Shown piece by piece: positions 11,836 to 28,063 of a DNA stretch of 64,000 nucleotides. The stretch covers positions 1,184,001 through 1,248,000 of the forward strand of contig OY730476.1 of NCBI GenBank assembly GCA_963422735.1, given 5' to 3'. Position 1 is the stretch's first letter. Every line of letters begins with the position of its first letter. The DNA is from Candidatus Latescibacterota bacterium. Its GTDB lineage: Bacteria; Latescibacterota; UBA2968; UBA8231. The position numbers were made by a program, and so were the translations under genes. Below the pieces are notes generated by a model. That model was not told the DNA's origin. It saw only the letters and a list, made by a program, of their open reading frames with translations, and made no database searches.

Positions 11836-12019
11836 GACACGCTCGTCCGCTCACTGTAATCTTCCTGTATCCACGCACTGTGCTCGTCGCGTCCATGGCG
11901 TGGTCAATGCCTAGGCAGTTCGCGCTGTTCGACGATTTCGCCGAACAGCCCCTACCACCGACGGCAAGTCTTCCCTCTGGCCCAACGCTATAACAAAGAG
12001 GTTGGATGACAGAGCACCG

Positions 12020-12676
12020 CTAATCCCTCAGTAGAATGTTCTGCTCCTTCAGGCTCTGGATTAATTGGCTAAATTTAGGCACCAATCGGATCACGATACG
12101 TCGATTAGGGGACTGTTCACCCTTTGTTCCGGTTAGGACAACCAGCTCCCGCTCACCTAAGCCAACTGGGACGATATCGAAATTTTCCCAAGTGAAGCCG
12201 ACCTGCTCCCAATAGTCCACTACAGTTTGAGATCTTTTCAGGGATAGGCTGCGATTGTATTCCCTCTCGCCGTAACTGTCGGTGTGGCCCTCTACCATAA
12301 TACTGAACAATCTACTGTCTTTTTTTTCAATAAACTGTTTTAATTTTTGACCCATTCGTCTAAGCCGATTTTGCCCTTCGACGGGAATATCATCCAGATC
12401 AGATTCATCAAAAGAGAACAAGATATCACTGCGCATCACAATAGTACCCTCTTCCACGACGACGTCTTCCCCCTCCATAAACTCCTCTAATTCATCGAGA
12501 TCTTTCTCTATTTTACCCACCAATTCTTCCAGCGTCCGCAGACGGCTCAGATCCACATAATTCTTGATCACCATCACAACGAGAAAAAAAGTGACGCAAA
12601 TGAAAATAGCCGTGATTGCATCCGTGAAAGAAGGCCAGAAATTGAGCCCACTATGACTACTGCGATTCCTTTTCAT
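12020..12676 (-). CDS. ZorB/MotB-like protein (single TM with conserved Asp + OmpA-like peptidoglycan-binding domain)
   Basis: FWPSFTDAITAIF TM; ILFSFDES, VEGHTDS, NRSLSLKRS, NRRIVI. Confidence 0.88.
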   Translation of the reverse strand: MKRNRSSHSGLNFWPSFTDAITAIFICVTFFLVVMVIKNYVDLSRLRTLEELVGKIEKDLDELEEFMEGEDVVVEEGTIVMRSDILFSFDESDLDDIPVEGQNRLRRMGQKLKQFIEKKDSRLFSIMVEGHTDSYGEREYNRSLSLKRSQTVVDYWEQVGFTWENFDIVPVGLGERELVVLTGTKGEQSPNRRIVIRLVPKFSQLIQSLKEQNILLRD

Positions 12677-12715
12677 CTAGGGCTGCTTTCCCAAGCATTC
12701 AGCCGGTGGGCCTGA

Positions 12716-14353
12716 CTATTCCTTGCTATCTTTCTTAAATAATCGACGGATCCAACCCCAATTTCTTCGCGGTCGTACGGTTATAACTTGCGGCGATTTC
12801 GCTATGCCGTCTAACTGTTTTTCTATAGCCTGCGCCGTCGCATGCATGTCTTCGAGTTGGGGGATTACCTGATCTATAGCCTTCAGTACTTGGAGATCCT
12901 CGTCCGCTTTTTTAAACCCTTGGTTGATGGCTCCTACCATTTGATCTAGCTGGTTCTGCAACGTTCCTGTCGCTTTGCTCAATCCCTGCAGATCTTGGCG
13001 GAGTCTTTCCAATTCATCTTGTAAGGGTTTCTTGGCCCGTTCAAACGCCTCTCCTTGCTCGTTGAGCGTCTTCTTCTGAAGTTCGAGTAAGGCATCTTGG
13101 CTCTCCCTGACAGCTATGAGCAGGGTCTGGATGTTCACGAAATTGGGACGATAATCTGTGTTATTCAATCCTCTTATCGTATCCAGAGTCTCGGCTAGGC
13201 CATCTCCTAGGGTCTCCATTCGCGTCTCAAATGACTTAGATTGTCTGTCCATCCGATCATCAAAGGCTTGAAACTGTCGGGCCATCAAGTGCTCGCTCTC
13301 CTTGAGCATAGTATCGACGCTGCTCTTGAGCGCATTCAGAGGCTCGCTTAGCCGCTCAAAGTTCTCGATGTGTCGAGAAAACTCTATAGCCGCTCTCATT
13401 ATTTCTTTCGCCCCCGTAGCTACCGTACCCTTGTGCTGCTCAAAAATCTCCGCGCTCTTCAGACTGGCCTCGCTACTTTCCTTGAGCTTCGTGCCGCTCT
13501 CTTCTATAAGTGAGACCATGCGGGCGTTACTATCGACAATTTCCTTGAGTCTTTTGTCTAAGTATTCGGAAAGAGTAGTGAAATACTTATCGTATAGGTC
13601 GTTTACTGTTCGAGTAAAGACGCGACTTAAACGCAACTGAGGCGGGATCACCGCAAACTTGGGAGCGATCTTCGCGTTGAAGCACTCTTCCAGATTTGCC
13701 AACAATCTGTTCCTACTACGAAGTAGTAAGCTATACGGAGCATTGAGTATTAGAGAAAAAGAAAGTCCTAAAAAACTGGTAATGAACGCCAGCGGCATCC
13801 CGCTTACGGACTGTCCTAATCCTGTTAGGATGGTATTAAATACATCCTCTATTTTTACATCTTGACTCGACGTCGGTGAAATCTGCGCTCCTTGGATAAT
13901 ACCTGGGATAGGTATGACCACGATTATTAATCCAACGAACGTGCCTAGCAGGCCCAATAGAATAAGGCTACTGGTAAGTGTGCGGAATGCTTCGTCGTGT
14001 CGGGCGAGTTCATGTTCGATAGAGCCGATAAGACTATCTACATCTGGAGCTTTATTTTGTCGGTATAAGGCTTCAAAATGTTTGAGCCAACGGACGGCCA
14101 AGGGATGCCGGGCACCCCTAATAACACTTTCGGGAGCCTGCTCTGTCTTTTCCTCTATATTGAAATCAGGATTGCTTCTCTCCCATCTCTCCATCGTACG
14201 CAATCCGTTGCGATATTGCCGCGTTTTTATGCACCCTCGGACAAATAGGACAAATGCATATAGGCCGACCAAGATAATGAGAACGACAAAAATTTCCCGA
14301 ACCTGATCGCTGTTTTGGGCTAAGAATTCTAAAAGGAGATCTAAATAAGGCAT
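12716..14353 (-). CDS. ZorA/MotA-TolQ-ExbB-like channel subunit with long helical C-terminal tail
   Basis: Three TM segments; LGLLGTFVG and AFITSFLGL channel motifs; about 300 aa coiled-coil-like tail. Confidence 0.82.
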   Translation of the reverse strand: MPYLDLLLEFLAQNSDQVREIFVVLIILVGLYAFVLFVRGCIKTRQYRNGLRTMERWERSNPDFNIEEKTEQAPESVIRGARHPLAVRWLKHFEALYRQNKAPDVDSLIGSIEHELARHDEAFRTLTSSLILLGLLGTFVGLIIVVIPIPGIIQGAQISPTSSQDVKIEDVFNTILTGLGQSVSGMPLAFITSFLGLSFSLILNAPYSLLLRSRNRLLANLEECFNAKIAPKFAVIPPQLRLSRVFTRTVNDLYDKYFTTLSEYLDKRLKEIVDSNARMVSLIEESGTKLKESSEASLKSAEIFEQHKGTVATGAKEIMRAAIEFSRHIENFERLSEPLNALKSSVDTMLKESEHLMARQFQAFDDRMDRQSKSFETRMETLGDGLAETLDTIRGLNNTDYRPNFVNIQTLLIAVRESQDALLELQKKTLNEQGEAFERAKKPLQDELERLRQDLQGLSKATGTLQNQLDQMVGAINQGFKKADEDLQVLKAIDQVIPQLEDMHATAQAIEKQLDGIAKSPQVITVRPRRNWGWIRRLFKKDSKE

Positions 14354-14381
14354 GGAGGGACTCTACCGTACAAGATTTTGT

Positions 14382-15332
14382 TCATTTCGCTAGTAAGATT
14401 CCGGCCTTGACAATTACCTCAGTTCCCCGACGTAATCCAGGTGTAACAAATCGAATCACGTGACCGCGGTCGACCTGAGAATCTTCTCGCTCATCGGAAA
14501 TTTGGTGATCTTCTGGCGAGTATTTGTCCCCTTGCTTTGGCCAAATCAACTCAAGGTCGCGTTCTTGGGCAAACCTTTCCAACTTTGCGGGTTTCTGTTC
14601 TAGCGATTTTTTTTTGCCATCCAACTGTTCGATTAAACCGATCAGTGCAGAATCCCACGGGCTGCTACGACTGTCTATCTTAGCTTGGATCGTCGTCCAT
14701 TGATCTTTGAGAGCCGATCCCTCCGATATAAAAGAGACAAGATCCAATTTATTCACTGCCTCTTTGATCTTTTTAATGTCCTCGTCAATGGTCTCGGCAT
14801 ACTGTATCGACGGCATACTCTCTTCAGGTTCTAGTGGAAGTTCGTCGAGCATTTCTCGGAAACGATCTCGGGTATTTGTAATCTTTGAGTATCTTTTGTT
14901 CCATTCTTCGTCAGCATCCCGTACTTCTTCTTGGAACGATTTTAGTCCCTTTTCCACATCGGCCTCTAGCTTTCGTAGCTCTTGAAATTTGGCGTTGGTA
15001 GGGATAGATTGACAGAGATCTACGTAATCGTCGTGGGACGCTTGTATATTGTCGTGGAACTTTGTCAGCTTTTTTCTGAAGTTACTCAAATCGTCCAAAA
15101 ATACGCCAACTTTCTTCACAAAGCTCTCTTCCGCTCCATCGAAGCCCTTGGCTACATCGAGGATATCCGAGAAGACGAGATCGCCAAGACCGCCTTTGTG
15201 TAGTTCTTCGCGGATCTGTCTTGTCTTGGAGACGATTTCCTGCAGAGCTTGGAGATCTTTCTCCCAGTGGGCAACTTCGTTGTCTAGAGCGTCAACCTTT
15301 TGTTGGAATTCTTCCATAGATATCCTATCCAT
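14382..15332 (-). CDS. Coiled-coil protein with C-terminal GrpE-like beta domain
   Basis: Heptad-rich N-terminal 250 aa; C-term GDKYSPEDHQ..GHVIRFVTPGL..VIVKAGILL resembles the GrpE head; follows an Hsp70 gene. Confidence 0.7.
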   Translation of the reverse strand: MDRISMEEFQQKVDALDNEVAHWEKDLQALQEIVSKTRQIREELHKGGLGDLVFSDILDVAKGFDGAEESFVKKVGVFLDDLSNFRKKLTKFHDNIQASHDDYVDLCQSIPTNAKFQELRKLEADVEKGLKSFQEEVRDADEEWNKRYSKITNTRDRFREMLDELPLEPEESMPSIQYAETIDEDIKKIKEAVNKLDLVSFISEGSALKDQWTTIQAKIDSRSSPWDSALIGLIEQLDGKKKSLEQKPAKLERFAQERDLELIWPKQGDKYSPEDHQISDEREDSQVDRGHVIRFVTPGLRRGTEVIVKAGILLAK

Positions 15333-15396
15333 TTTAATCTTTTGCTAGTCTTTATTTTTTAACGTCTTCATTGTTAGGTACATTGCTACAAAACAT

Positions 15397-18300
15397 TCAA
15401 CTATAGTTAAAGTCCTCGCATTTCAAGTATTCATCATAGATTTCTTCAAAATCACTTCCATCCTTTTCTTTTCCTATCGCGAAGTTGTAATAGAGCCGAC
15501 CGAGATTGCTTTCGTCGACTCGAAGCTCGAGCTTGTACTGCCAATACGCGGCTTGCTTAAAAGCTCTGTTCTCTAGCGGCATGGGAATATCCGCTGCTTT
15601 CTGCCGATCTGCTTTCCGATTTTTGTAGTTCCAATCGAAGAATTCGTACAGTAAGATACTACGAATCTTACGATCATTAGGAGAAACCCTGCTCGCATAG
15701 CGATGTACCTCTCCCTTATCTAGGGAAATCCAACGGTCGAAAATGGGGCTGAAGCCTCGCATTGGATTGTAGGAACCTATCGGATAATTTAGCTTGTGTA
15801 TCCCGAAGACTCGAAGTCTGAACTCTGGATCGCGTTGAGACATGCTGTAAATAGCCGCTCCCGAAGCCACGCTCGCCTTCAGGCCATTATTGGAACCTGA
15901 AAGAGTAGAGTCCGAAAACTCTTTAGCCTGTATCATCTCCCGGGCGACTTCTTTCACAATCGGCAATTTGGACGAATTGCCGGCCAAGATCAGGTGGTCT
16001 AGCCGGAATTCCGATATAATCTCCCGCTTGAAAAGTTCCTGCTGCATCATAGCTAGTTTTTTGAAGCCCCATTCCAATTCTCGGCTGAGCACAGAGCGAA
16101 TAGCTTGGTAATCCATAGAGCTAAGTTCCTCCGGCAAGGCGTCGCCGTTGATGCTGCGCTTTAAGCCCTCCGTGACTTGAAATACATCGCGCTCTTCCCG
16201 GCTAACTAACTCAATCTTGGGCCAATTCATTTTCTCGTCGCTAGCTAGCAGGTCCAACAATCCCTTATCTTTTGTCTGGATCAGTTCCTCGTAGCGGTCC
16301 TGGGAAAAACATTGGTCGAACAACTGGTATGTCTTGCTGTTTGTCTTAATCTCCTCAGCTAACCGATAGAGACACAGAAAGTTCCTTTTCACGATACGAT
16401 CTTGGGTGCGTAAGCCATCGCGAAGATCTTTTGCAAAGGGATAGCGACTGCGGTACTGTTCAGGGACGAGTTGCTCGTAGAAATATTTAGCCAAGTGAAA
16501 CGTCAGCAGGTTTCCTCCCAGCCGATTGTCACCATCGGAACCGAGAATTTCCACTTGCGCTTCATCATTATCCATAGTGTAACGTACGATGGACATATCG
16601 GTCGTTCCCCCACCACAGTCGAATACCCCAATTATCTGTTCATCCATATCATCATTATCAAGCTGCTTCCACACATAATACACCGCTATAGCTTCAGGTT
16701 CACTAATGGCTAGGTCAAACTTAATGTCGCGATCCTGCAGAGCCTTTTCGGCCGCATCCCGCAGAGCCTGTTTTTGGCGATTGAATACTGCCGGATAAGT
16801 CAGCACGCCCTCTTCGGGCAAATACCCGAATTCTCCAATGAAGTGCTCTACCATAAACCGGAGATAAATAGCTACTTGGTCAACCGGAGTCAGGCTGATA
16901 TGCCGCCTATTGATAGGGGGATGCCCGTTGATCAAGATGCCTTCCGACATCCCGGTAGAAATATAGATATTCTGATCGTCGGGTTGACTGAGAGCATATT
17001 TGAAATTCCAGCAGATACTGCTCATAGAATGAAGGTCGTTCATCTGCTGAAATGGCTGACGCCCAAAGCGCATGATGGCTTCCTCGCTCTCGGTCGCCAC
17101 TAAGTGATGCTCGTTAGGCTCCAGAGGTTTGGAAAGTTCCAAACGTTCCGTTTTCTTATTTGTTGTCAGAAGCTGAAAGACAGTAGGCACTTCGACACGA
17201 GGTTCATTGGTTTCAAATGCTGCCAAGCGAGGCATTGTTTCTTCATCTTCAACAACATAGGCCAAGCAAGAATTGGTCGTCCCAAAATCGATACCAATAG
17301 GATAATCTAACGGTTTGGGAGGAATTACTTCGACAGAGAGTGAATACCTATCTTCGAACGCCGGGGCTTCCGCTCCTCTAGCCTCCCCCTTGACGATGAT
17401 CTCGGGTTTAAAATACTTTGATTCTGTTACCCAAGGGATTTCGATAGTCTTTATTTGCAACTGGAGATCCAGCACACTCTCCTCATCAGCTCCCGCCGTT
17501 GAAATCTGAGGGTTAAGGATGACCGGTGCCTTCTTGGTGTCAATGACCTGCAGCCAAGGCGTATCGCTGGTCACGCTATTTATGCGTAGTGGTTCGCCCC
17601 GTAAGTGCGTAATGGTGGCACTCACCTCTTTCTGTCTTCGACTTCCGCTTATAAGTGCCGTATCGCCGGATAAACCCAGCGGATTGAAATCCACCTTGAG
17701 CACCGGCTGACGAGTGTACTTTAGATTGAGATGAAAATCGATATCACCTCTGTTCTGGATGGGAAAAACGAGATGTACAGGATGCCCTTCTTCAGACAGA
17801 GGCTGATTTTGGGTGAGCCTTACCGAAAAGGCTTTGTCTGGACCCAAGCGGAAGGGGTAGCTTGCCTCCGCTGGCACCATATCCACCACCTGCTCTCCCT
17901 TGGCCAGCCGGGGAGGCTTTTCCAAAACCACTTCGCTTGCGGCATAAAGGGCCAGATCGTGCCTTTGAGCTTCCTGATTTACCGGCCACACCTGTGCGCC
18001 GTCAGTGCCTTGGTCAAACTCCCGCCCCTGCTCGTCAGTCAGCCAGATTCGGGGAGCCTTTTGGACCCGGTAACGAAATGAAATCGGTGGCAGCGTGGAG
18101 TGCAGGATCAACCGTCCCCGTTGGCCGAGACGCCCGGTATGTAGCCGGCGTATTTCTATTTTTTCTTTTGGAGCCAAAGAAACGGGCCAATCCGCTTCCG
18201 AAACCCATTCTCCCCATTCCACTCCATCGAGACGTTCCAGTTCCACGGGTATCTTCCCGGTATTCTCAAACCGCATGATGACTGGATAGCCTTCAAAGAG

Positions 18301-18456
18301 CGTCAATAGCTCATTGGGCTTGGGAAATACCTCTAGATGGGCGAGTTGAGTCCCGCAACTGCTGCAAAAGATGCTTCCCCTCCCATAAGGCCACTGACAA
18401 ACAGGACAAGCACCCATCGCCTTATCGGCCCGCTCTTGGCTCACTTCCCTAAGCAT
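15397..18456 (-). CDS. Atypical Hsp70-family ATPase with N-terminal Zn ribbon and Ig-like domains
   Basis: CPVC..FCSSCG; IGIDFGTTNS, TYPAVF, ISEPEAIA, FDCGGGTTD, LGGN, LAGNSSKLP; no canonical DnaK substrate-binding domain. Confidence 0.88.
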   Translation of the reverse strand: MLREVSQERADKAMGACPVCQWPYGRGSIFCSSCGTQLAHLEVFPKPNELLTLFEGYPVIMRFENTGKIPVELERLDGVEWGEWVSEADWPVSLAPKEKIEIRRLHTGRLGQRGRLILHSTLPPISFRYRVQKAPRIWLTDEQGREFDQGTDGAQVWPVNQEAQRHDLALYAASEVVLEKPPRLAKGEQVVDMVPAEASYPFRLGPDKAFSVRLTQNQPLSEEGHPVHLVFPIQNRGDIDFHLNLKYTRQPVLKVDFNPLGLSGDTALISGSRRQKEVSATITHLRGEPLRINSVTSDTPWLQVIDTKKAPVILNPQISTAGADEESVLDLQLQIKTIEIPWVTESKYFKPEIIVKGEARGAEAPAFEDRYSLSVEVIPPKPLDYPIGIDFGTTNSCLAYVVEDEETMPRLAAFETNEPRVEVPTVFQLLTTNKKTERLELSKPLEPNEHHLVATESEEAIMRFGRQPFQQMNDLHSMSSICWNFKYALSQPDDQNIYISTGMSEGILINGHPPINRRHISLTPVDQVAIYLRFMVEHFIGEFGYLPEEGVLTYPAVFNRQKQALRDAAEKALQDRDIKFDLAISEPEAIAVYYVWKQLDNDDMDEQIIGVFDCGGGTTDMSIVRYTMDNDEAQVEILGSDGDNRLGGNLLTFHLAKYFYEQLVPEQYRSRYPFAKDLRDGLRTQDRIVKRNFLCLYRLAEEIKTNSKTYQLFDQCFSQDRYEELIQTKDKGLLDLLASDEKMNWPKIELVSREERDVFQVTEGLKRSINGDALPEELSSMDYQAIRSVLSRELEWGFKKLAMMQQELFKREIISEFRLDHLILAGNSSKLPIVKEVAREMIQAKEFSDSTLSGSNNGLKASVASGAAIYSMSQRDPEFRLRVFGIHKLNYPIGSYNPMRGFSPIFDRWISLDKGEVHRYASRVSPNDRKIRSILLYEFFDWNYKNRKADRQKAADIPMPLENRAFKQAAYWQYKLELRVDESNLGRLYYNFAIGKEKDGSDFEEIYDEYLKCEDFNYS

Positions 18457-21400
18457 TGGCGTCCGCCATCACATATATGTCGTCTTTGCAGTGAGGATCG
18501 CGATAGTCTAGGCGTTTGGCAAAACTATCTTTGTCCTGCAAGTATCGCTTTATACGGTCGTCCAATTCGCTGTCGCTGATATCCAAACGCTCTAGCACAT
18601 CATTGAATTTTTCGCCGAAAGCCTTGTCGAGCAGGTTGTGGAACAAGTCGTTCGCATCCACACTATTGCCGTGTATCACAACTTTGGTAGCGGGATATAC
18701 ATGCTCCACTAGATGGCTTTGGAGGGCCAAGTACTGCTCAAAAGCGAGGTTATTGCCATTCAAGTGCCAGTTGTCCTGAATCTTTTGCACCTCTTGGCGC
18801 AGCCTATCTCTTATAAACTGGTCTCGGGCCAAAGTCCGGCGTGCCATCTCGAGATTAAGTCCGTAATCGTCCTCGCGCTTTCGGCCCTGTGCGCGGTAGG
18901 TCCGGTAGAATCTTCGGTTGTCATAAGTCACTACCCCGAGTAAGATACCACCAATGAGCGGCTGTAGGGCATCCACTAGCATCCGCGCTTCTTGGTCGTT
19001 TTTAGGCGGTAGGATCTCCGGATATTTGATATAGTCCTTGGTCGTGTACCGCTTGTATACATTTTGCGGCATTCCACGGTTTTTTTCGTATGCTTCGTGC
19101 AGTTTATTCAAATTGTCGATAGCGAACAGGGGAAAGGCCATCCATTGGCTGACAAATATAACCGAATCGGGGGCGTGGTACTCCACTTGAGAGGCTCGCA
19201 CGTTTTGTTCGATTTGCGTTTTCCACCTGTTTTCACCTGGAGGAAGTCCTATTGTTCTCTGGATGTGAGGATCCATACCCGAGAAACGTGGTTTTGACTC
19301 GGACATCCGTGGTTCGGCCAGCCCTGATCTTTTCAGTATCTCATCTTTCTCATTATGGTTCTGGTTTTCCACCTCTTGAACGGCGTTTCTATCAGCATAG
19401 AACTCCTTAAATAGGCCAAACGAGAACTCACTCAATGAATCCTCTACCTCTCCCCAATCACGAGGGGTATTGTCCCTATTCGCAGAGCGATTGAAGATAA
19501 TGCGGGTACAATCGCGTATGGCATCGATCTCGTTCCCTTCGCGAGTAGCGTATTCAGCAAACAGCAGCCGGGCTTCTTGCGAGCGGAAATAGGTCTCCAA
19601 AACACCTTGTAAAACTTCATTGAAACCGGCACCCGTCCGTCCTTTTTTATGGCGTAGATACGTCTCTATTTCCTCGCGGTAGTTAAGTTCGGGCATGAGA
19701 TTGAGATTGCGCACACTGGACATCCGCTTGCTATAAGAACGATAGAAGCCCCCGAAGCGGTTAGCCATCTCTTGAAGATGATCTTGAAATTTCTCCACCT
19801 TGGCCAGCAAACCACTGAGTTGCACATGAAGTTCGCCATCTGCACCCCGGACTTGGGTCTGTTGGCCGACAAAGCCGATCATGTTGTCAAGCAGGCCCTT
19901 TTCCTGCTCATGTCTCCCGGAATTGGGATTGAGCAGCCGACGGGCCGCCTCCTGCTCATAGCGATCAGTGACCCATTGCTTGAGTTGGTCCCTGACGGCC
20001 TCTACCTGCTGTTCCAGATTACGGGTGAAGAGCTGGGCATTCTGATCAAAGGACTTCCGTTTGCGTTCTTCATAATAGTTGATAGCAATGCGTTTCGTTA
20101 AGACGGCAAAGGGCATCTCCTGTCTAGCCGCTCGTAGGAGAGCCTCGTATTTATTGTACTCGTCGGAAAATTCGATTGGGATCGGCGGAGCCTCTGGTGC
20201 TTCTATGGGCCGGTTCTCCATGGCCTGCAATTCCTCTTTGACCCGCTCCAGTGCATCGACGGCGATCTTCAGCCACTCAACCATGAATTTGGGGCCGAAC
20301 TCCAAGGGGTCGCACAGTAATTTCAGACATTCATCTTCTACTCGCTTTTCGAGCTCGGGACGGTCTGAGCCAATATTTTCCAAAATCTGCTTCACACCAT
20401 CGCCCTTTTGGGTGCCTTGCTGTAACAGTCTTTCCCCTACTCGTCTCCGCACTTGGCTAACCCATTCAACCATCTGCTGCCGCGTTTGCTCCACTTGGCG
20501 GTCCAAAACCTTTTGGTCCCTTACCACCGGTGCCGCGAGCAAATCGTCCCGCAATTTATTGAAAGCCGGTTCGATCAACTCGTTGACGACCTCGTCTATC
20601 AAGGTGAAATCCTTTCCCGGCTTGACCAAGCAGCGTTTCAAAAAGAGATCCTTAGTCAGGCCCATCTGCTCCATGCGGGGTTTGACATCGGCATCATCAA
20701 AGCCCTGAGGAATTCTGTTGTCCTTGGCTATGATGAGTTCTACCAGATACTGAGCGCAGCGGTTGGCAGCCGCATTGGCCATACGAGGCTGATTCAATTC
20801 AATCTGGGAAAGCCCAAAAGATGCATACCGACGTGGAAAATACTGGACATAGTTTCCGCTGCTGAAGATGGCCATATCTTGTAGGTACTGCTCCATATTG
20901 GAACGTACGCTGCGCTTTTGAGCGGCGAATCTGGTCTTGTCGAAATCCAGCAGTAGAAATTCAGCGATCATCTGGAATGTATCGGTGAATTCGTCAATGC
21001 GTTCTCCGGCCATATTCTCCTTGTCGAGCATATAGACCGTCGAAAAAGGCGGTGCTTCCACCTGCCGTGAGGTTCCATCCCAATTAAATTCGTGGGTAGA
21101 GTACTCGCTTGTCTCCTCGTCTGTGGTGGCAATAAACCGGGGCTGCATGAAGTACTCGAGTTCCTTGAGCGCGGCAAAGCCGTTGGCATGGACGGCCTCT
21201 ACTCCTGTGGGATCCACTTTATCGTCGAAAACCGTGGGCATGGCCAGAAAAGCCGTGCGCGTAGAAGTCGAGAACAAAACTCGACATAGAAATCCGACGT
21301 CGATAAAGCAACCAGACCCCGTTCCACCACCGAGGGAAGACACAGTAATAATCTCCAAGGTGCTAGTATCTACCTCATAATCAGGGTAATGGCTGTTCAT

Positions 21401-21901
21401 GTGTGCAACGGCCTCTTGGGCAGTTACCTTTCTCCCCAATCTGTTGATGGCATCGCGAATTCTTGTGTAATGGTGGAAGAAAGCCAACCGTCCGAAGGAA
21501 CGGATCTGCGCTGCCCCTTGCGTGATAGCATTGTCGGCCATCGCGTCTAGTTCGCTGGGCAACCAGTCCCATATATGCGGATAGGCATTCTTGTTGCGCC
21601 GGTATCCAGCCAACTCCTCGGGCTGGACCCGCCCATCAATCTTCTGTGAAATGGTAAGGTCAATGAGCCTGTCCAACTCGTCAGGTACCTCCTCGCTCAG
21701 GGACTCATTGCGGATGTCAGTATCGAACCACAGGTATTCCATGACGGGTAAACCCGCTACTCTGTACTTTTCGTAGAACAGCCGCCGCAGCCGCCGCAGT
21801 ACTTCCTTTCCCGTACCGCCCAAGCCGATCAAAAGCGTGGGACGGATATCTATCGTTTGGTTTTCTTTTTTTGCTTTAGTTAGAGTACCCACCTTAGCCA
21901 T
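18449..21901 (-). CDS. Large FtsZ/tubulin-like GTPase (Tubulin_2 / FtsZl1 family)
   Basis: LLIGLGGTG, GAAQIRSFGRLAF, SSLGGGTGSG signature; about 800 aa helical C-terminal region; ATG 21901 with AAGGAG RBS. Confidence 0.92.
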   Translation of the reverse strand: MAKVGTLTKAKKENQTIDIRPTLLIGLGGTGKEVLRRLRRLFYEKYRVAGLPVMEYLWFDTDIRNESLSEEVPDELDRLIDLTISQKIDGRVQPEELAGYRRNKNAYPHIWDWLPSELDAMADNAITQGAAQIRSFGRLAFFHHYTRIRDAINRLGRKVTAQEAVAHMNSHYPDYEVDTSTLEIITVSSLGGGTGSGCFIDVGFLCRVLFSTSTRTAFLAMPTVFDDKVDPTGVEAVHANGFAALKELEYFMQPRFIATTDEETSEYSTHEFNWDGTSRQVEAPPFSTVYMLDKENMAGERIDEFTDTFQMIAEFLLLDFDKTRFAAQKRSVRSNMEQYLQDMAIFSSGNYVQYFPRRYASFGLSQIELNQPRMANAAANRCAQYLVELIIAKDNRIPQGFDDADVKPRMEQMGLTKDLFLKRCLVKPGKDFTLIDEVVNELIEPAFNKLRDDLLAAPVVRDQKVLDRQVEQTRQQMVEWVSQVRRRVGERLLQQGTQKGDGVKQILENIGSDRPELEKRVEDECLKLLCDPLEFGPKFMVEWLKIAVDALERVKEELQAMENRPIEAPEAPPIPIEFSDEYNKYEALLRAARQEMPFAVLTKRIAINYYEERKRKSFDQNAQLFTRNLEQQVEAVRDQLKQWVTDRYEQEAARRLLNPNSGRHEQEKGLLDNMIGFVGQQTQVRGADGELHVQLSGLLAKVEKFQDHLQEMANRFGGFYRSYSKRMSSVRNLNLMPELNYREEIETYLRHKKGRTGAGFNEVLQGVLETYFRSQEARLLFAEYATREGNEIDAIRDCTRIIFNRSANRDNTPRDWGEVEDSLSEFSFGLFKEFYADRNAVQEVENQNHNEKDEILKRSGLAEPRMSESKPRFSGMDPHIQRTIGLPPGENRWKTQIEQNVRASQVEYHAPDSVIFVSQWMAFPLFAIDNLNKLHEAYEKNRGMPQNVYKRYTTKDYIKYPEILPPKNDQEARMLVDALQPLIGGILLGVVTYDNRRFYRTYRAQGRKREDDYGLNLEMARRTLARDQFIRDRLRQEVQKIQDNWHLNGNNLAFEQYLALQSHLVEHVYPATKVVIHGNSVDANDLFHNLLDKAFGEKFNDVLERLDISDSELDDRIKRYLQDKDSFAKRLDYRDPHCKDDIYVMADANA

Positions 21902-21953
21902 AGTATTCTCCTTCAATTTTGCTTCAACCAGTCATTAAATGCTGTCTGAAAAC

Positions 21954-21976
21954 CTTCGGCTGCGCTCAGGTCGAAG
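21954..21976. repeat. REP-like palindrome
   Basis: CTTCGGC-TGCGCTCAG-GTCGAAG hairpin in the protease/tubulin intergenic gap. Confidence 0.4.
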
Positions 21977-22043
21977 CCCCCGGCGGCTGTCGCACGAGGG
22001 GCAAAGTATCCGCAGATGAGCGCAGAGGCGGATTGCTTGGGAC

Positions 22044-23087
22044 TCACTCGGAATTTTCAGCGGCCGATGGCCGGGCGACAAGTTTTACTATCACCACAAT
22101 GAGAATTAGGATCACCATCCAAGCGATGAAGACTCGCCATTCAATTTGCGACCATGACACCCAGCCCATTGAAAAATCAAAAAGGCCGCTCAACCCACAG
22201 GAGGCGATCACCGCAAAGCCCCCCCACGATACGAGGGCGGATATGCCAAAAGCCGTGGCCGGGTGCTTGTCTCGGTTCTTAATGAGCCCGCTAAAGAGTA
22301 TATAGACCGAAAAGATATAGACGATTACAGAAAACACCAGAATCCAGACTATGCGCCCAACCTCCACATAGCGAAAGGTGCCCTTCGATCTGGTCACCGG
22401 TGGCGGGACTCCTACCCGAACAGGTTCAAATTGGTCCGAGGGGATGCCCAGCAGCGGTTTAGCTTCATCAATTGAGACCGCAAAATTGAGATTCTGCCCC
22501 TCGCCATGGCTAGAGCTTAGATTAAAACTTACCACGCCAATTACCTCCCCGGTCTGGTCGAATAAAGGCCCGCCACTATTGCCCGGCGATACGGCAGCAT
22601 CCGTCTGAATCAGCCTGAGGCCCTCCGGGGTAGTACGGACCTCGGAGATAATCCCTTCAGTGACCGAGTACTCTAGCCCTAACGGGTTGCCTATTGCCAC
22701 GACGGGATCGCCCGAACTTATATACTCCCCTGATCCAAGCCTAGACTGCTGTAGGTGTTGGTTGCGCGGATCGACGTTTATCACCGCTAGATCTTTGAGT
22801 TCGTCTTGGGCGACAACGCCCGTAATCGGCATCCAAGTTCCGTTGAACGGCTTGGCCCATCCTTCTTTGATGCCCTTGATTACATGGTGCGCCGTGAGAA
22901 TTTGGCCCGTTGACTTGACGATGATTCCGCTCCCCACTTCCTCTCCTTCATTGGTAGAGACCTTGAGGAATACTACGCTTCCCTTCTCTTCCTTGGCAAT
23001 CTGCTGAGTAAACGTGGAGCCGCTTTGTCCCGGCCCGCCACACCCCATCCAGCCGATAATCAGTATTATGATGATGTGCCGTTTCAT
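22044..23087 (-). CDS. Trypsin-like (S1C/HtrA-type, no PDZ) serine protease with lipoprotein-like signal and three C-terminal TM helices
   Basis: ILTAHHVI, DLAVI, GNPLGL, SPGNSGGP; N-term MKRHIIIILIIGWMGC. Confidence 0.88.
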   Translation of the reverse strand: MKRHIIIILIIGWMGCGGPGQSGSTFTQQIAKEEKGSVVFLKVSTNEGEEVGSGIIVKSTGQILTAHHVIKGIKEGWAKPFNGTWMPITGVVAQDELKDLAVINVDPRNQHLQQSRLGSGEYISSGDPVVAIGNPLGLEYSVTEGIISEVRTTPEGLRLIQTDAAVSPGNSGGPLFDQTGEVIGVVSFNLSSSHGEGQNLNFAVSIDEAKPLLGIPSDQFEPVRVGVPPPVTRSKGTFRYVEVGRIVWILVFSVIVYIFSVYILFSGLIKNRDKHPATAFGISALVSWGGFAVIASCGLSGLFDFSMGWVSWSQIEWRVFIAWMVILILIVVIVKLVARPSAAENSE

Positions 23088-23102
23088 CTTGCCTCCCTCG
23101 TG

Positions 23103-24704
23103 CTATTTGAGGCGTTCCAGTTCAATATTGCCCTTGTGGTTGAAAATCTCATCCTTTTCAAAAGCCACCCCCTCCTCGCTGACCGGATCGCCCATCCGAT
23201 TTATTAACTCGGCCCTTGGCAGTAAGCAGTATTTGCATTTGAACAAGCCGTCTCGCCGCAAGTATCCCAAAACGATATCCTTTCCGCTTTGGTTTGTGTA
23301 CCCCAATTCCTTTTGACCGCCGGGGCGCATCCAGTACTTGTACTCGACATCTGCCAGCCGGTAAACGAGCCTTCTAAAATAAACCCTTCCTCCGGCAGCT
23401 ACCACAGCGATGGGTAGCAAGATCACCTTGACCCAAGCCCACCACAGATAGAGAGGGGAACGGACTTGCAGCCTGCCTCTTATGGCTCCTCCCTTGGGCA
23501 CCACTTCCAAACCCTCTCGGTCTCGGTGTAGGAAGTGTATCAGATCTTCTGGCGTATAGATACGCTCGACCTCTTGGAGGTTGTCGGTGAAGTACTTCTC
23601 CTGATAAGTCGGAGTCATGCGAAACGAGCCGGGCGGTATCTCCAAGACGACCTTGGACATATATTGCACTGGAATCGGGCTTATACGCGCCATGCCAAGC
23701 TGGTCGAAGAAGCCGACTTCGTTGGGCAATAATGGTCCTAGGTGGACCCGGCACGAATAGCGGTATTTGTTTTGGCTATTGTGCTCTAGCTTCTCTTCAA
23801 GGCGGGGTGGAGTAACTCGTCCTCTCCCGCCGGCTCGACTCCAGTACCGCCGATCTCCGGGCTGCATGGGAACGATCCTAGGTTGGCTTACCTTCAACCG
23901 CACCGGATTACCATGCCCATCGGTCGGCTCGATATTCAGGTAGCTCAATTGCGACTCTAAGGTAAAGGAGAAATATACCGACTCGGATTCGTCCATGCCG
24001 ATGTCGCTCGGCTGGTCCGAATGTGCCCGGCGTTTGCGATGTAGAACAATGCGGTGATCTAGCGGTTTCATCAGCATCGGTTCCAAACCGCCAGTCTTGA
24101 GTCGGGAGATGAGTTTGCCGAATCTAGTGCGCTGATCTTCTTCTGTGAGATAGGCATATAGGACCGCCCCACGCGGACCTTGGTGGTATGTCTTGTCCGG
24201 GTGATTGAACAACCGTCCGTCAAAGGGCAGACTCAGCGGCACGGCATATAGTACTTGTACTGCATCCTCGGCAAAACGTGTATAGAGCCCTCGAACATCC
24301 TCGTCATTGGTGGTCGCCTGCACATTATCGGTTAAGAAAAAAGTAATCGGTGCCCATCCAAGCCCTTCTTTAAAAGCCCTGAGCAAATTGGTATAGCTGC
24401 CCCAGCGTGCGTCTTGGATCTCCTCGATCCAAACGAGCGAATCCGGGTGTTGGGATATAAAAAATAAAGTGCCTGCCTCCAGTTGCTGATCTTGGCAGGC
24501 TTTTTCCAACGAGGTCAGCAATTTCTGTAGCTCACCTGTTTGCTGGAAGCCCTCCATTGAACCAGAGCCATCGACCAAGATGCTGACATCGGTCCCAGCG
24601 GCGGTACGAGGGCCGCCAAACCCTAGGCAGCACAGCAGAGCAACGTACCAGATTCGTTGGTTTTCAAATGGCCAATAGGTCATAGCGATATAGATGGTAC
24701 TCAT
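23103..24704 (-). CDS. Exported vWA-domain protein with C-terminal TM anchor
   Basis: Hydrophobic signal, MIDAS VDGSGSM, YTNL, FFLTDN; TM LYLWWAWVKVILLPIAVVAAGG. Confidence 0.75.
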   Translation of the reverse strand: MSTIYIAMTYWPFENQRIWYVALLCCLGFGGPRTAAGTDVSILVDGSGSMEGFQQTGELQKLLTSLEKACQDQQLEAGTLFFISQHPDSLVWIEEIQDARWGSYTNLLRAFKEGLGWAPITFFLTDNVQATTNDEDVRGLYTRFAEDAVQVLYAVPLSLPFDGRLFNHPDKTYHQGPRGAVLYAYLTEEDQRTRFGKLISRLKTGGLEPMLMKPLDHRIVLHRKRRAHSDQPSDIGMDESESVYFSFTLESQLSYLNIEPTDGHGNPVRLKVSQPRIVPMQPGDRRYWSRAGGRGRVTPPRLEEKLEHNSQNKYRYSCRVHLGPLLPNEVGFFDQLGMARISPIPVQYMSKVVLEIPPGSFRMTPTYQEKYFTDNLQEVERIYTPEDLIHFLHRDREGLEVVPKGGAIRGRLQVRSPLYLWWAWVKVILLPIAVVAAGGRVYFRRLVYRLADVEYKYWMRPGGQKELGYTNQSGKDIVLGYLRRDGLFKCKYCLLPRAELINRMGDPVSEEGVAFEKDEIFNHKGNIELERLK

Positions 24705-25917
24705 GATCGCGAGTCAGCACGTACACGTATTTGCCGAAACCCGCTGGCGGCACAACTGGCTCTTCGCCTAAAGGCCAGCTTCGCAAGAAAGGTTCCCCTC
24801 CCCATTCATCAAGACGGGAAAGACGAAATTCCGTATTAGCTCCCACTCCTCTTTGGAAATTGGCGACCAAGCCGCCCAAGCCTTTGGTCTGATCGAGGTG
24901 CCTCATGGAATATCCGGGACTACACTCCAATTTGGACGCAACTTGCCGATCCAACGGATCGAACAACAGCATAAAATTAGACCCTATCGCCATATAGCAA
25001 TAGCCGGACTCGATCCGCAATGCCTGTAGGGCCTGTACCTCTACCTTGGTTCGGCCCGGAATTTCTTTTAGCACCTGTTGGCCGACTAACTGTAGGGCAC
25101 ACAAGCCCCCTTCTTGATTCAATAGCCATATTGACGGATCCTCGCCGCGCATCACGCCCTCCCAAGCGGCTAATGTGTCGCTGAGGGTACCCCTATACGG
25201 GATTTTCTCTCCTTGTTCTAAATCCAAGAAAGCAACCCTGTTTTCCTCCTCTATTAAGCCTAGATAGACATCGCTTCCCCGAATTGGAATCATTTCTTCG
25301 ATATGCGACGAATTTTTGTATGGCTTTTGCAATTCGTCGAAAATGCGGTCCTTGCTCTTCCAGTATCGATCGCAACTTGCTTTATCTACCTTATACATAT
25401 GAATAGTCAACGCCTCTTGGGCCAGCAGGAAAAGTCGATTCCGGCCTAAGGCAATCTTCTCGACGCGCTCACATTCCACGGCAACCTGCTTCCACGAAGT
25501 AACTTGCAGCATATCGTCGTTCAACAACGCAGAGGTCGGAAATACCTGCAGCGTCCCCACCTCCGTGAGCGCGTAAATCCACCAGCGGTCAAAATCCACC
25601 TGACGCAAGGAAGCCCCATTGAGCCGAGGCAGGTCGCGTGGCTCGTCCTCTATGTAGGTACTCATTTCTCCGCTGGATTTATTCACTAATACAGGCTGGC
25701 CGAATACGTTAAAGAAGTCGTCAACTTGGTCCATAATGACCTCCATATTCCCAACAGCACTGTCTTTACTCTCTCCAGAAGGTATGTCGGCCATGTAATC
25801 GACAGGTTTGCTCTCGACAGCATCGCCGCAAACTGCACAAAAATTAGCGAGTGCATGATGCTCGCGACCATCTTTAGAACACATCCAAGCGTTCTTCTGC
25901 CAATTCCAGTTTTGCAT
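24664..25917 (-). CDS. Zn-ribbon + probable beta-propeller protein, unknown function
   Basis: CSKDGREH..NFCAVCG; beta-rich remainder; overlaps the vWA gene start. Confidence 0.6.
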   Translation of the reverse strand: MQNWNWQKNAWMCSKDGREHHALANFCAVCGDAVESKPVDYMADIPSGESKDSAVGNMEVIMDQVDDFFNVFGQPVLVNKSSGEMSTYIEDEPRDLPRLNGASLRQVDFDRWWIYALTEVGTLQVFPTSALLNDDMLQVTSWKQVAVECERVEKIALGRNRLFLLAQEALTIHMYKVDKASCDRYWKSKDRIFDELQKPYKNSSHIEEMIPIRGSDVYLGLIEEENRVAFLDLEQGEKIPYRGTLSDTLAAWEGVMRGEDPSIWLLNQEGGLCALQLVGQQVLKEIPGRTKVEVQALQALRIESGYCYMAIGSNFMLLFDPLDRQVASKLECSPGYSMRHLDQTKGLGGLVANFQRGVGANTEFRLSRLDEWGGEPFLRSWPLGEEPVVPPAGFGKYVYVLTRDHEYHLYRYDLLAI

Positions 25918-26009
25918 TATTTTTCGTAACCTTTGATCAAGTTAAACTCTATCCCAATCTCGCGTACAACCTCAAAACTAACCGGTACGGTGTCGCTTGT
26001 GATTTTGGT

Positions 26010-26037
26010 AAAATAGACCGCTACTGAGTAATGTCAA
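26010..26037 (-). promoter_or_regulatory. Candidate sigma70 promoter of the 8-gene operon
   Basis: TTGACA-16 nt-TATTTT about 90 bp upstream of the first ATG. Confidence 0.5.
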
Positions 26038-26065
26038 ATAAATGGCAAAGATACCGACCCGGCCC

Positions 26066-28063
26066 TCATACAGTTGTCCCCAGCACCCCCCAACCCCAAT
26101 TCCTAATTCCCAATTCTCCCACATCCTCCACCCCAGCTCGCAACAACTCGGCCACGCTCCACGCTTGGGCGATGCAGCCGCGAGGAGCAAAAGGCGGCTC
26201 AGCGTCAAATATCTCCGAGACCGTGCCCAAGCCCGCCTCGCCTAAGTGCGCGGCAAAGCCGTCGAGGAGGGCGCGAGCGCGCTGGCGACCCGCACGGCCG
26301 TGGCAACGGCAGAGAGCGGTGATGTACGGGCCGATGAGCCAGCCCCACACCGTGCCCTGGTGATACGCGCTGTCGCGCTCCCACGAGCCGCCCGCATATT
26401 GGGCGCAGTACGCCGGATCGCTCGGCGAGAGGCTGCGCAGGCCGCGCGGGGTCAGCAAGTGTTCTTCAATCACCGATAAGATCCGCCGCGCCCGCTCGCC
26501 CTCGATGAGCGGGAAGGGCAGCGAGAGCGCAAAAATTTGATTGGGGCGCAGTGCCCAATCCGGCCCCTCGGGGGCGACTACGTCGCAGAGGTACCCGCGT
26601 TCTTCACACCAGAACAGGCACTCAAAGGACGCACGCACCTCAGCGGCGCGCTGGCCGTACTCGGTGCGCTGACCAAATACCTCGGCCAAGTGCTGCAAAA
26701 TTTTGAGCGCATTGTACCAAAGGGCATTGACCTCCACCGGCTTGCCCATGCGCGGTGTGACCACCCAATCGCCGATCTTGGCGTCCATCCACGTCAGTTG
26801 CACCCCCGGCTCCCCAGCCGCGAGTAGGCCGTCAGCATCAACCCGGATCTGATAGCGCGTACCGCGCATGTGCCAAGCGGCTATATCCTCTAGCGTCGGC
26901 CAGAGCTCGCTGGCAAACTCGTAATCTTGGGTGTATTGCAAATACTTGTAGAGTGCGACAAAAAACCACAAAGTCGCGTCAACGGAGTGGTATTCGAGAA
27001 CCGCTCCCGCGTCGGGAAAGCGGTTGGGTATCATGCCCTCGCTGACGTGCTCGGCAAACGCCGCGAAGATGCCCCGCGCCTCGGCAAAGCGCCCGGTGAC
27101 CAAGCAGAGGCCGGGCAGGGCGATCATGGTGTCGCGGCCCCAATCCGTGAACCAGTGATAGCCCGCGACAATGGTGTGCAGGCCGTCGCCGCGCCGCACC
27201 ACAAACTGGTTGGCCGCTCGCGCCAGCGACCGCAGCAACGGGTCGGCCGCCCAAGGGGCGCGCACCTCCACCTGCTGACGGCGGCCGATCTCGCCGGCGA
27301 GGAGTGCGAGGGGGTCGCGGCAAGCGGGAAGCTCGGTGGCCGCAAGTACGCCAACGGTAGCCCCGGGAGCGAGCTCAAGGCGCAGACGACCGGGTGTGAA
27401 CAGGTCCTCGCTGTGGTCGAGACCTCGCTCTTCCTCGCGCGGATATTGGAAGTTGTAGTACCAATCAGGGGCCGCCTCCCAGTACGCGCCCGGGGCGAGG
27501 AGATGAGCAGTGGACTGTTCCCAATAGGGGCGATAGACCAGCGCGTCCTCAGCCCAATGGGCCATTGGCGCGACGTGATCGTTGGCCTGCATCAAGTGGT
27601 GATAGTCCCGGCTCGCGAAAAAAGGGCGCAATTCCAAACAAAGCGGGCCACGCGCCCTCACCAGCTCGTACGCGACGACCAAGGTGTGCTCGCCCGCGAG
27701 CAAGGCCAGCCGCTTGCGCAACTCCCACCCATCCCCCGCGTACGTCCACGTCGGCACCGGCTCGGGCGCGAAGGCCGTCAACCATTGGTCGCCCCGCGGG
27801 TGAATGACCCCGGGGAACATGCTGCAACCTAGCTCGACGCGGGCTGTGGGCAGGACCAAGGTCTCGTCGAGCCGCGAGAGCAACACTACCCGGCCGACCG
27901 GCGGACAGGTCGCTACGACTAGCAGGCCGTGGTAGCGCCGGGTGTGCGCCCCGCTGACGGTGGAGGAGGCCCAGCCGCCCAAGCTATTGGTCTCCAGCCA
28001 CTCGTGGGCAAAGGTATTGGCCAGTGGGTAGGGCCTATGGACATTTAGGCTATTGCCAAGCAT
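26066..28063 (-). CDS. Glycogen debranching enzyme (amylo-alpha-1,6-glucosidase, GDE_N + GDE_C); 5' end abuts an IS remnant
   Basis: EWLETNSLGGWASST..TRRYHGLL, AGYHWFTDWGRDT, TWMDAK, YHQGTVWGW, QAWSVAE. Confidence 0.92.
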   Translation of the reverse strand: MLGNSLNVHRPYPLANTFAHEWLETNSLGGWASSTVSGAHTRRYHGLLVVATCPPVGRVVLLSRLDETLVLPTARVELGCSMFPGVIHPRGDQWLTAFAPEPVPTWTYAGDGWELRKRLALLAGEHTLVVAYELVRARGPLCLELRPFFASRDYHHLMQANDHVAPMAHWAEDALVYRPYWEQSTAHLLAPGAYWEAAPDWYYNFQYPREEERGLDHSEDLFTPGRLRLELAPGATVGVLAATELPACRDPLALLAGEIGRRQQVEVRAPWAADPLLRSLARAANQFVVRRGDGLHTIVAGYHWFTDWGRDTMIALPGLCLVTGRFAEARGIFAAFAEHVSEGMIPNRFPDAGAVLEYHSVDATLWFFVALYKYLQYTQDYEFASELWPTLEDIAAWHMRGTRYQIRVDADGLLAAGEPGVQLTWMDAKIGDWVVTPRMGKPVEVNALWYNALKILQHLAEVFGQRTEYGQRAAEVRASFECLFWCEERGYLCDVVAPEGPDWALRPNQIFALSLPFPLIEGERARRILSVIEEHLLTPRGLRSLSPSDPAYCAQYAGGSWERDSAYHQGTVWGWLIGPYITALCRCHGRAGRQRARALLDGFAAHLGEAGLGTVSEIFDAEPPFAPRGCIAQAWSVAELLRAGVEDVGELGIRNWGWGVLGTTV

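Follow-up and report, generated by a model that had tools for sequence, protein, structure and literature searches.

The DNA described here is a 64,000-nt stretch of contig OY730476.1 (positions 1,184,001 to 1,248,000, forward strand; assembly GCA_963422735.1) from a Candidatus Latescibacterota bacterium, and this whole stretch is referred to as the window. Between window positions 12020 and 25917 lie eight uninterrupted open reading frames (ORFs), all on the minus strand and designated g1 to g8 in the order of transcription. The cluster joins a ZorAB-like motor to an FtsZl1/vWA module and an Hsp70/GrpE-like pair, and is a real, conserved and accessory eight-gene system. The genes, together with a promoter-like site, are listed below (aa, amino acids; TM, transmembrane; MIDAS, metal ion-dependent adhesion site).

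g1, 24664-25917, minus strand, 417 aa: predicted N-terminal Zn-ribbon and beta-propeller protein, cytoplasmic; first gene of the cluster
g2, 23103-24704, minus strand, 533 aa: signal-peptide-like N-terminus, predicted outward-facing domain with a MIDAS motif, one TM helix and a cytoplasmic tail
g3, 22044-23087, minus strand, 347 aa: lipoprotein-type signal, HtrA/DegP-like protease domain without PDZ, C-terminal multi-TM module
g4, 18449-21916, minus strand, 1155 aa: FtsZl1/Tubulin_2 GTPase (aa 28-392) with a C-terminal extension of about 750 aa
g5, 15397-18456, minus strand, 1019 aa: N-terminal Zn-ribbon, N-domain of about 350 aa, Hsp70-type actin-fold ATPase core (aa ~385-870) and C-terminal domain
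g6, 14382-15332, minus strand, 316 aa: long coiled coil and GrpE-like C-terminal beta-domain (aa ~250-316)
g7, 12716-14353, minus strand, 545 aa: ZorA-like membrane subunit of the MotA/ExbB family with a C-terminal coiled-coil tail of about 300 aa
g8, 12020-12676, minus strand, 218 aa: ZorB/MotB-like protein, N-terminal TM helix with Asp19 and C-terminal OmpA-like peptidoglycan-binding domain
Promoter-like site, 26037-26010, minus strand: TTGACA-16-TATTTT, 10/12 consensus positions, upstream of g1; best match in the region

The genes are closely packed. The frames of g1 and g2 overlap by 41 nt and those of g4 and g5 by 8 nt, and the remaining junctions are gaps of 15 nt (g2-g3), 127 nt (g3-g4), 64 nt (g5-g6), 28 nt (g6-g7) and 39 nt (g7-g8). 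The guanine-plus-cytosine (GC) content per kb is 0.449-0.533 across positions 12001-26000, compared with 0.61-0.68 in the flanks (0.619-0.624 at 9001-11000 and 0.613-0.680 at 26001-28000), and gene by gene it is 0.45-0.53 in g1 to g8 against 0.62 and 0.65 in the two flanking genes. A first-pass annotation of this DNA, made from the sequence alone, had described eight co-oriented, uninterrupted and tightly spaced genes that were more AT-rich than their flanks, and these measurements confirm that description. It had also placed the genes behind a candidate promoter. The pattern is present upstream of g1, but the number of promoter-like sites in the region (11) does not exceed that in shuffled sequences (15.0 +/- 3.6), and the consensus may not apply in Latescibacterota. 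Terminator-like sites in the region were not above shuffles either, and none was found after g8 on the minus strand.

The order g1 to g8 is the same in 7/7 close loci, from seven Latescibacterota genomes with close relatives of g4, and in six of these the two flanking genes are also the same. It is kept as well in 6/6 distant Latescibacterota loci, whose genomes belong to other families within the class (25-48% identity); g6 lies beyond the reach of tblastn in these and was recognised by its position and a C-terminal alignment, and g8 was matched only in part in two of them (L010 and L011). Since the gene order recurs in all 13 related loci examined (13/13), the arrangement is far beyond chance. 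The eight genes form a single conserved unit, and the whole block is present or absent as such.

Ratios of nonsynonymous to synonymous substitution rates (dN/dS) were estimated by the NG86 method from seven close genomes, with 15-21 pairs per gene. The medians were 0.50 for g1 (the highest of the cluster), 0.44 for g6, 0.38 for g4, 0.36 for g5, 0.32 for g3, 0.30 for g7, 0.26 for g2 and 0.12 for g8, the most conserved gene of the cluster, with 0.17-0.18 for the flanking genes. These values indicate that all eight genes are functional and that the rate of evolution of most exceeds that of the neighbouring genes. How closely a locus resembles the window also varies by gene; for example, locus L005 has 89% identity in g6 and 75% in g4, and locus L002 has 61% in g6 and 87% in g4. 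Such gene-by-gene differences suggest recombination between variants.

Beyond these genomes, a profile of g5 compared with 1.84 billion representative proteins gave 59 matches at E <= 1e-30 and 1015 at E <= 1e-10, and the distant relatives keep the Zn-ribbon and the N-domain. A scan of metagenomes with the g5 alignment left 80 loci, which were then searched with hidden Markov models (HMMs) built from the sets of 13-14 orthologues. Five loci (L026, L029, L031, L042 and L043) have, on one strand, a g2-like gene, a membrane protein of ~150 aa, g4-like and g5-like genes, proteins of ~90 aa, ~240 aa and ~700 aa, and g7-like and g8-like genes, in that order. Five more (L025, L027, L028, L032 and L052) show the order in part, being interrupted by contig ends or having one gene undetected. 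As L026/L027 and L032/L042 look like near-duplicates, this corresponds to about eight distinct loci of the 80, and most of the other ~65 have just Hsp70-like genes of other kinds. The related order is thus found at ~20-25% identity, and for L042 the domain assignments are clear (Pfam: Tubulin_2 1.7e-42, HSP70 1.3e-7, OmpA 3.2e-19). The protein upstream of the metagenomic g2-like gene starts with Zn-ribbons and has a weak match to g1 (hhalign E 6e-5, probability 65%), and the GrpE-like end of g6 is the part that aligns with the ~240-aa protein (E 2e-4, probability 45%). The GC content of these loci is 0.29-0.50. They probably derive from other phyla, because g5 relatives at that level of identity are lacking in the Latescibacterota genomes. 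The first-pass annotation had named a lack of joint conservation as a finding that would refute it; instead, conservation extends from the 13 Latescibacterota loci to distant metagenomic ones.

Two further metagenomic loci, L069 and L080, have g1-like, g2-like, small TM and g4-like genes divergent from a g5-like gene, and the motor pair was not detected within the available DNA of either locus. In L080, a protein near the Hsp70-like gene has a GrpE domain above the cut-off (1.5e-11). Loci of this kind could be taken to mean that the cluster is two or three unrelated modules lying side by side, namely a decayed Zorya motor pair, an FtsZl1-vWA module and an Hsp70/GrpE pair, and the position of the motor genes at the 3' end of the cluster would agree with this. 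We judge it highly improbable, given that the same order, with tight or overlapping junctions, is found in every one of the Latescibacterota loci, that the linkage is seen again in about eight distinct metagenomic loci at ~20-25% identity, that the block comes and goes as a unit, and that g7 and g8 are themselves under purifying selection.

Some other loci have additional genes. Just downstream of the ZorB-like gene in L042 (17166-17837) and L029 (15849-16244) is a gene for a staphylococcal-nuclease-family protein (SNase 2.4e-21; PADLOC C3a212 6.3e-30). It is preceded by an ORF of ~105 aa that is conserved in L028, L031 and L042 (tblastn), and an ORF of similar size occupies that position in L029. 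An SNase-type nuclease follows the cluster in 2/6 distant loci with downstream sequence, suggesting that some variants may add a nuclease. In L025 (16833-18830) the cluster is followed by genes for a microbial-type poly(ADP-ribose) glycohydrolase and an AAA_28/cytidylyltransferase-like (NadR-like) protein. A Latescibacteria contig (L021, 13213-18789) has, after an Hsp70-like gene, three opposite-strand ORFs of exactly 324 aa that interleave with three g6-like paralogues; the motor pair was not detected there by the HMM scan, and the repeated ORFs may be mobile elements.

As to the proteins themselves, the gene content proposed in the first-pass annotation stands for the motor pair, the Tubulin_2 and Hsp70 proteins and the trypsin, all of which have domain matches, while the vWA protein has no family match and the GrpE-like protein falls just under the cut-off. 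The smaller motor subunit, g8, matches OmpA (Pfam, 2.1e-12) and, over its full length, ZorB1 (PADLOC, 9.9e-21), and reaches 32.8 bits with NCBIfam ZorB1 (cut-off 400). Its full-length-type structure matches, which include the N-terminal TM region, are chain 8qyd_F (3.2e-6, residues 2-153) and the MotB-related chain 8vvn_B (9.9e-5, residues 13-157). We take 8qyd to be E. coli ZorAB; the title of the entry reads 'Membrane protein'. The TM-helix aspartate (Asp19) is present in 16/16 aligned orthologues and relatives. It lies in the motif WPSFTD in the window, and WPSF(T/A/V)D is found in 14 of the 16, with L025 and L028 reading WTVF(T/A)D.

The best matches of g7 are the ZorA models of PADLOC (ZorA3, 9.4e-12, over aa 126-515), and its motifs LGLLGTFxGL and GMxxAFxTS are invariant in 13/13 sequences. 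A profile of its tail matches the chemoreceptor cytoplasmic domain 2ch7 in the PDB (6.7e-5), and the same kind of similarity is reported for the ZorA tail in the Zorya paper (PMC11946911). The length of the g7 tail differs between orthologues (the window, L003, L004, L006, L007, L010, L012 and L014), with repeats of ~29 aa, in one to three copies, gained or lost within the genus, and with changes by blocks of ~100 aa among members of the distant clade. In Zorya, the length of the tail reportedly matters. From their motifs and domain layout, g7 and g8 have the predicted architecture of a ZorAB-type ion-driven stator, with a MotA/ExbB-like channel, a long coiled-coil tail and a MotB-like subunit.

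The large GTPase gene, g4, specifies the sole Tubulin_2 match in the genome (Pfam, 7.8e-64). The glycines of its T1 loop (G31, G33, G34 and G36) and the GGGTGSG box (G197-G202) are invariant in 18/18 relatives at identities down to 20%, and on the strength of these alignments g4 keeps the GTP-binding loops of tubulins. In one locus (L007, 11419-12620) the g4 relative is split by an insertion of ~1.2 kb, with nine stop codons in the g4 frame. The insertion carries an opposite-strand ORF of 354 aa and may be an insertion sequence; the other seven genes of that locus look intact.

The match of g5 to HSP70 (Pfam, 4.6e-15) is limited to model positions 133-238 of 599. When its profile was compared with the PDB, the nucleotide-binding domain (NBD) of DnaK was retrieved in three segments (4.5e-19), with alignments that end within the NBD. 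Little or no variation is seen in the motifs DFGTTNS, FDCGGGTTD and LAGNSSKLP, and residue conservation thus demonstrates that g5 keeps the putative ATP-binding motifs of Hsp70 (phosphate-1, phosphate-2 and adenosine). Distant relatives almost always keep the Zn-ribbon cysteines C17, C20, C31 and C34. A canonical Hsp70 substrate-binding domain was not detected in g5 by Pfam or the PDB profile, and no DnaJ/J-domain match was found among the proteins of the cluster (Pfam). The Hsp70-like proteins described for CoCoNuT systems (PMC11090510) represent a different context.

The match of g6 to GrpE is borderline, just under the threshold (E 2.4e-5, 24.5 bits; Pfam cut-off 25.8). GrpE is nevertheless the commonest family among g6 orthologues (9/14 at E <= 0.1), while the g6 profile retrieved coiled-coil matches and not GrpE from the PDB. 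In the distant Latescibacterota clade (L009-L014; for example L009, 13710-14537) and in the metagenomic type, g6 opens with a hydrophobic, TM-like segment, so that the GrpE-like protein would be membrane-anchored there, unlike that of the window's clade. A predicted complex of the g5 ATPase core with two g6 C-terminal halves scored 0.22 against a mark of 0.32, which speaks neither for nor against binding.

At the start of the cluster, g1 has zero matches in Pfam, NCBIfam or PADLOC. An AlphaFold2 model built with 13 orthologues is all-beta (pLDDT 84, pTM 0.87), and Foldseek ranks propellers of the WD40/BamB type first (E 5e-9 to 1e-7, TMq up to 0.57). Residues C13, C27 and C30 are invariant among orthologues. 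On the basis of this model, g1 is confidently predicted to fold as a Zn-ribbon and a beta-propeller.

The second protein, g2, likewise has no Pfam, NCBIfam or PADLOC match, and Pfam is also blank for 13/13 orthologues and 30/30 database relatives. However, D45, S47, S49, T105, T125 and D126 are invariant in 17/17 family members at identities down to 18%, and these residues correspond to the three parts of a vWA MIDAS site, DxSxS, T and TD. A broader profile of the family gave a marginal PDB match (8s05_A, E 0.0083) that spans DxSGSM...T...TDG, and CobT at E 1.7; against the VWA_2 proteins of the same genome, hhalign returned E 0.0074 with a probability of just 5%. The AlphaFold2 model (13 orthologues, pLDDT 33) provides no fold evidence for a vWA domain. 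One TM helix is predicted near aa 417-441, followed by a cytoplasmic tail of ~90 aa. Taken together, g2 is a probable divergent vWA domain facing outward, then one TM helix and a short cytoplasmic domain. Three leads for g2 were discarded: the first profile (A2) found a chance Rab match in the PDB, the same profile reached a probability of 1.3% by hhalign with the genome's own VWA_2 proteins, and VWA_2 clusters appeared in the ESM Atlas only at 0.79, under the level of a usable lead.

The protease, g3, matches Trypsin_2 (Pfam, 3.3e-29) and degP_htrA_DO (NCBIfam, 3.5e-41, far under the full-length cut-off). The lipobox cysteine C16 is shared by 14/14 sequences, as are the catalytic H68, D99 and S171, and by this measure g3 keeps a predicted catalytic triad. 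At the g3 position the distant metagenomic type has just the membrane module, as a protein of ~150 aa. The protease cannot therefore be essential to the wider family, and its casting in the first-pass annotation as a core sensor does not hold for that family.

The distribution of the system is patchy. Judged by g5, it is present in 16/168 genomes of the phylum and in 8/31 of the genus, the window's genome included. The flanking debranching-enzyme gene occurs in 30/31 genomes of the genus, and the insertion site was examined in ten g5-less genomes consisting of one or two contigs; in 8/10 it is cleanly empty, with the genes for the debranching enzyme and the TonB-dependent receptor 0.3-1.1 kb apart. 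The GC content of the cluster is under that of its flanks in 12/12 loci. The cluster is accessory and horizontally mobile. No tRNA gene, integrase or flanking direct repeat was found at the cluster (nor any tRNA gene in the whole window), a tblastn search of 72,556 plasmid records with g5 retrieved ordinary DnaK genes only (0 records cover >=80% of the query), and none of the 286 candidate stretches from a viral-contig scan with the g4 alignment proved to be a relative. Two other low-GC patches lie elsewhere in the window: a gene for a 616-aa N6_N4 DNA methylase (51828-53678, plus strand; 3.1e-51, GC 0.47) and one for a 420-aa beta-propeller protein, DUF5128 (31777-33039, plus strand; GC 0.46), beside a GNAT acetyltransferase.

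Contigs from two marine metatranscriptome runs of one study, 90-95% like the window, extend over a large part of the locus, and the g4/g3, g3/g2 and g2/g1 junctions are spanned by RNA-library contigs from a ~92% relative. They are a weak hint that the relative is expressed, because DNA may be present in an RNA library and a contig is no proof of one continuous transcript; stretches of the locus that the contigs leave uncovered carry no weight. For the co-transcription implied in the first-pass annotation they give the same weak hint.

We propose that the cluster encodes one horizontally mobile, envelope-spanning multi-protein system, the most likely role of which is conflict/defence or envelope surveillance, and we give this reading about an even chance of being correct. 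At rest, the g7/g8 complex would be idle. A disturbance of the envelope would be sensed outside the membrane by the peptidoglycan-binding domain of g8 and the MIDAS-bearing domain of g2, assisted, in the window's lineage, by the tethered g3 protease. By analogy with Zorya (PMC11946911), ion flow would turn the g7 ring and tail, and the turning tail would recruit or activate the cytoplasmic g5, g6 and g4. In this scheme g6 would be the GrpE-like exchange factor of g5, and g1, the Zn-ribbon propeller that evolves fast, is a candidate for the recognition or adaptor role. As output, g4 would assemble at the membrane under nucleotide control, with g5 and g6 as tuners, into a scaffold by which the site is sealed, contained or remodelled; an abortive output via ion leak is the alternative. 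Given the lack of a nuclease or toxin in the window's cluster, a physical output is the most likely. The specific mechanism, which would make the cluster a class of ion-motor-driven system not recognised before and in which a rotating ZorAB-type tail controls an FtsZl1 filament via a dedicated Hsp70-like ATPase and GrpE-like exchange factor, with a MIDAS-bearing periplasmic receptor as input and containment or membrane remodelling at the breach, not nucleic-acid cleavage, as output, is put forward tentatively, as a possibility that could well prove wrong.

A number of observations weigh against a conflict or surveillance system built around a motor. No nuclease, toxin or defence effector of known type was found in the window's cluster (Pfam, PADLOC). 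Its neighbours in the window have housekeeping roles (a glycogen debranching enzyme, a TonB-dependent receptor and cobalamin genes), and of ten proteins flanking other loci only two match PADLOC at E <= 1e-5, one as an SNase-type nuclease and the other weakly as a GTPase. Two of the ten g5-less genomes carry other cargo at the site, consisting of surface proteins with no defence genes. The motor assignment of g7 is below standard thresholds (MotA_ExbB, 21.5 bits, Pfam cut-off 22.9; NCBIfam ZorA_4, 16.4 bits, cut-off 500), and the g7 profile did not retrieve ZorA in the PDB, only the chemoreceptor and coiled coils. The vWA assignment of g2 and the GrpE assignment of g6, both made from sequence comparison, are borderline. 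Given that no motor pair was detected in L069 and L080, the motor may be an add-on rather than part of the core. A defence role is plausible, but it is one that we infer, and with housekeeping neighbours, surface-protein cargo at the same site and no nuclease or toxin in the cluster, the first-pass annotation overstated it.

The cargo of the two occupied sites (L107, 1219-7002, and L110, 6928-12148) differs. One genome has a 1927-aa immunoglobulin-repeat protein bearing a type IX secretion system sorting signal, and the other has two leucine-rich-repeat proteins and a trypsin-like protease.

A serious rival to the defence reading is a non-immune machine for membrane or envelope remodelling (vesicle formation, envelope repair or stress response), in which the motor energises a tubulin-like cytoskeletal element; we regard this as possible, though on the unlikely side. 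Other 5:2 motors (Tol, Ton and Gld) serve envelope functions, which counts in its favour. So do the housekeeping chromosomal context, the surface proteins at the same insertion site in other species, the lack of a nuclease or toxin in the window's cluster and the purifying selection on all genes, and membrane remodelling has been predicted for FtsZl1 operons with vWA and OmpA genes (PMC2875224). Such a function is harder to reconcile with a distribution that is patchy even within the genus, with foreign GC content in all 12 loci and with the faster evolution of g1, g4, g5 and g6 than of the flanking genes. The best motor matches are, moreover, to the ZorA and ZorB models of defence systems, and a long tail is typical of ZorA and not of the Tol, Exb or Mot A subunits (PMC11946911). 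The SNase-type nuclease after the cluster in two of six distant loci is a further point on that side.

FtsZl1/Tubulin_2 proteins have, to our knowledge, been without an assigned function since 2010, and we know of no ZorAB-type motor system other than Zorya with a worked-out mechanism. The cluster connects the two families. At least here, the 'OmpA-family' partner of FtsZl1 operons is a ZorAB-like stator B subunit with its A subunit adjacent, and the Zn-ribbon Hsp70-like ATPase and the GrpE-like protein belong to the same conserved unit. If the proposed control of the filament by the motor is true, it would be the first functional link of 5:2 rotary motors to a tubulin/chaperone machine and would provide a mechanism for the orphan FtsZl1 family. 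If the system is defensive, the Zorya principle would be widened to non-nuclease outputs; if not, it would be a new envelope-remodelling machine. It also offers a way to ask how a rotary motor affects a tubulin-like filament, and the residues that can be tested are Asp19 of g8, the GGGTGSG box of g4, the phosphate motifs of g5, the MIDAS motif of g2 and Ser171 of g3.

Compared with Zorya, g8 has the layout of ZorB (a TM helix with the essential Asp and an OmpA-like peptidoglycan-binding domain) and g7, by its sequence features, that of ZorA (a MotA/ExbB-like TM core and a long coiled-coil tail with chemoreceptor-like sequence). Unlike the Zorya subunits, both are far under the NCBIfam ZorA and ZorB cut-offs, and the g7 tail is ~300 aa compared with ~500 aa in E. 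coli ZorA. The partners also differ. Zorya types I to III have ZorC/ZorD, ZorE and ZorF/ZorG, respectively, and in a search limited to the genes of the cluster the ZorC-G models match none of g1 to g6 (PADLOC, E <= 0.01). In place of a DNA-binding protein and a nuclease, as in Zorya, the partners here are a GTPase, an Hsp70-like ATPase, a GrpE-like protein, a MIDAS protein, a protease and a propeller. Because ZorC-G are absent from it, the cluster is not a named Zorya type, in agreement with the first-pass annotation.

The g5/g6 pair resembles DnaK-GrpE in that g5 aligns to the DnaK NBD with all three nucleotide-binding motifs and g6 ends in a GrpE-like beta-domain. It differs in that no canonical substrate-binding domain was detected in g5 and no J-domain protein in the cluster, and in the Zn-ribbon and ~350-aa N-domain that g5 adds. 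In turn, g6 is under the GrpE cut-off, has a much longer coiled coil and is, by prediction, membrane-anchored in other lineages.

A description of this gene set was not found in the literature searched, which covered few subscription journals. The first-pass annotation stated that it knew of no described system joining these genes, and so missed the partial precedents in PMC2875224 (2010) and PMC7159879 (2020). The more recent of these describes GTPase-centric (DO-GTPase/GAP1-N2) conflict systems with tubulin homologues and HSP70/GrpE among their components (Kaur et al. 2020, PMC7159879), and the cluster might be a divergent member of them. Tubulin homologues with helical C-terminal extensions, membrane proteins with extracellular vWA domains, HSP70 and GrpE, N-terminal Zn-ribbons and, in some planctomycete systems, a trypsin are all described there, with action predicted near the membrane, and all of these have counterparts in the cluster. 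Neither of the two defining components was detected, however. None of the eight proteins has a Walker A motif ([AG]xxxxGK[ST]) or a Pfam match to a P-loop GTPase, and no GAP1, GASH or FNIII match was found in g1 to g8 with a Pfam copy not confirmed to hold GAP1/GASH models. In the main text of PMC7159879 the tubulin and HSP70/GrpE themes are called non-overlapping, whereas here they are combined, and together with a ZorAB-like motor pair; MotA does not occur in that main text, and 'ZorA' does so only as an author name. As no protein of the cluster has a P-loop, it is not a DO-GTPase/GAP1 system as described, and membership as a divergent form is improbable.

The closest precedent is the set of FtsZl1 operons with vWA and OmpA-family genes described in 2010, for which membrane remodelling was predicted (Makarova and Koonin, PMC2875224). 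In both cases a GTPase of the FtsZl1 family has two linked partners. One is a membrane or secreted protein whose MIDAS motif is intact, although the vWA domain around the motif is borderline in the cluster; the other belongs to the OmpA family and in those operons is present in several genomes but not all. In both the distribution is patchy, with many uncharacterised membrane-protein partners. Several differences are evident. MotA, Hsp70, DnaK and GrpE never occur in the main text of PMC2875224, and the OmpA partner is treated there as an outer-membrane beta-barrel and not as a stator subunit of the MotB/ZorB type. Protein kinases and P-loop GTPases, frequent in the operons of PMC2875224, are absent here. 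The unnamed families A1-A2 and B1-B9 of that study may include some of the cluster's genes. The cluster fits the FtsZl1-vWA-OmpA operons, and it refines and extends them.

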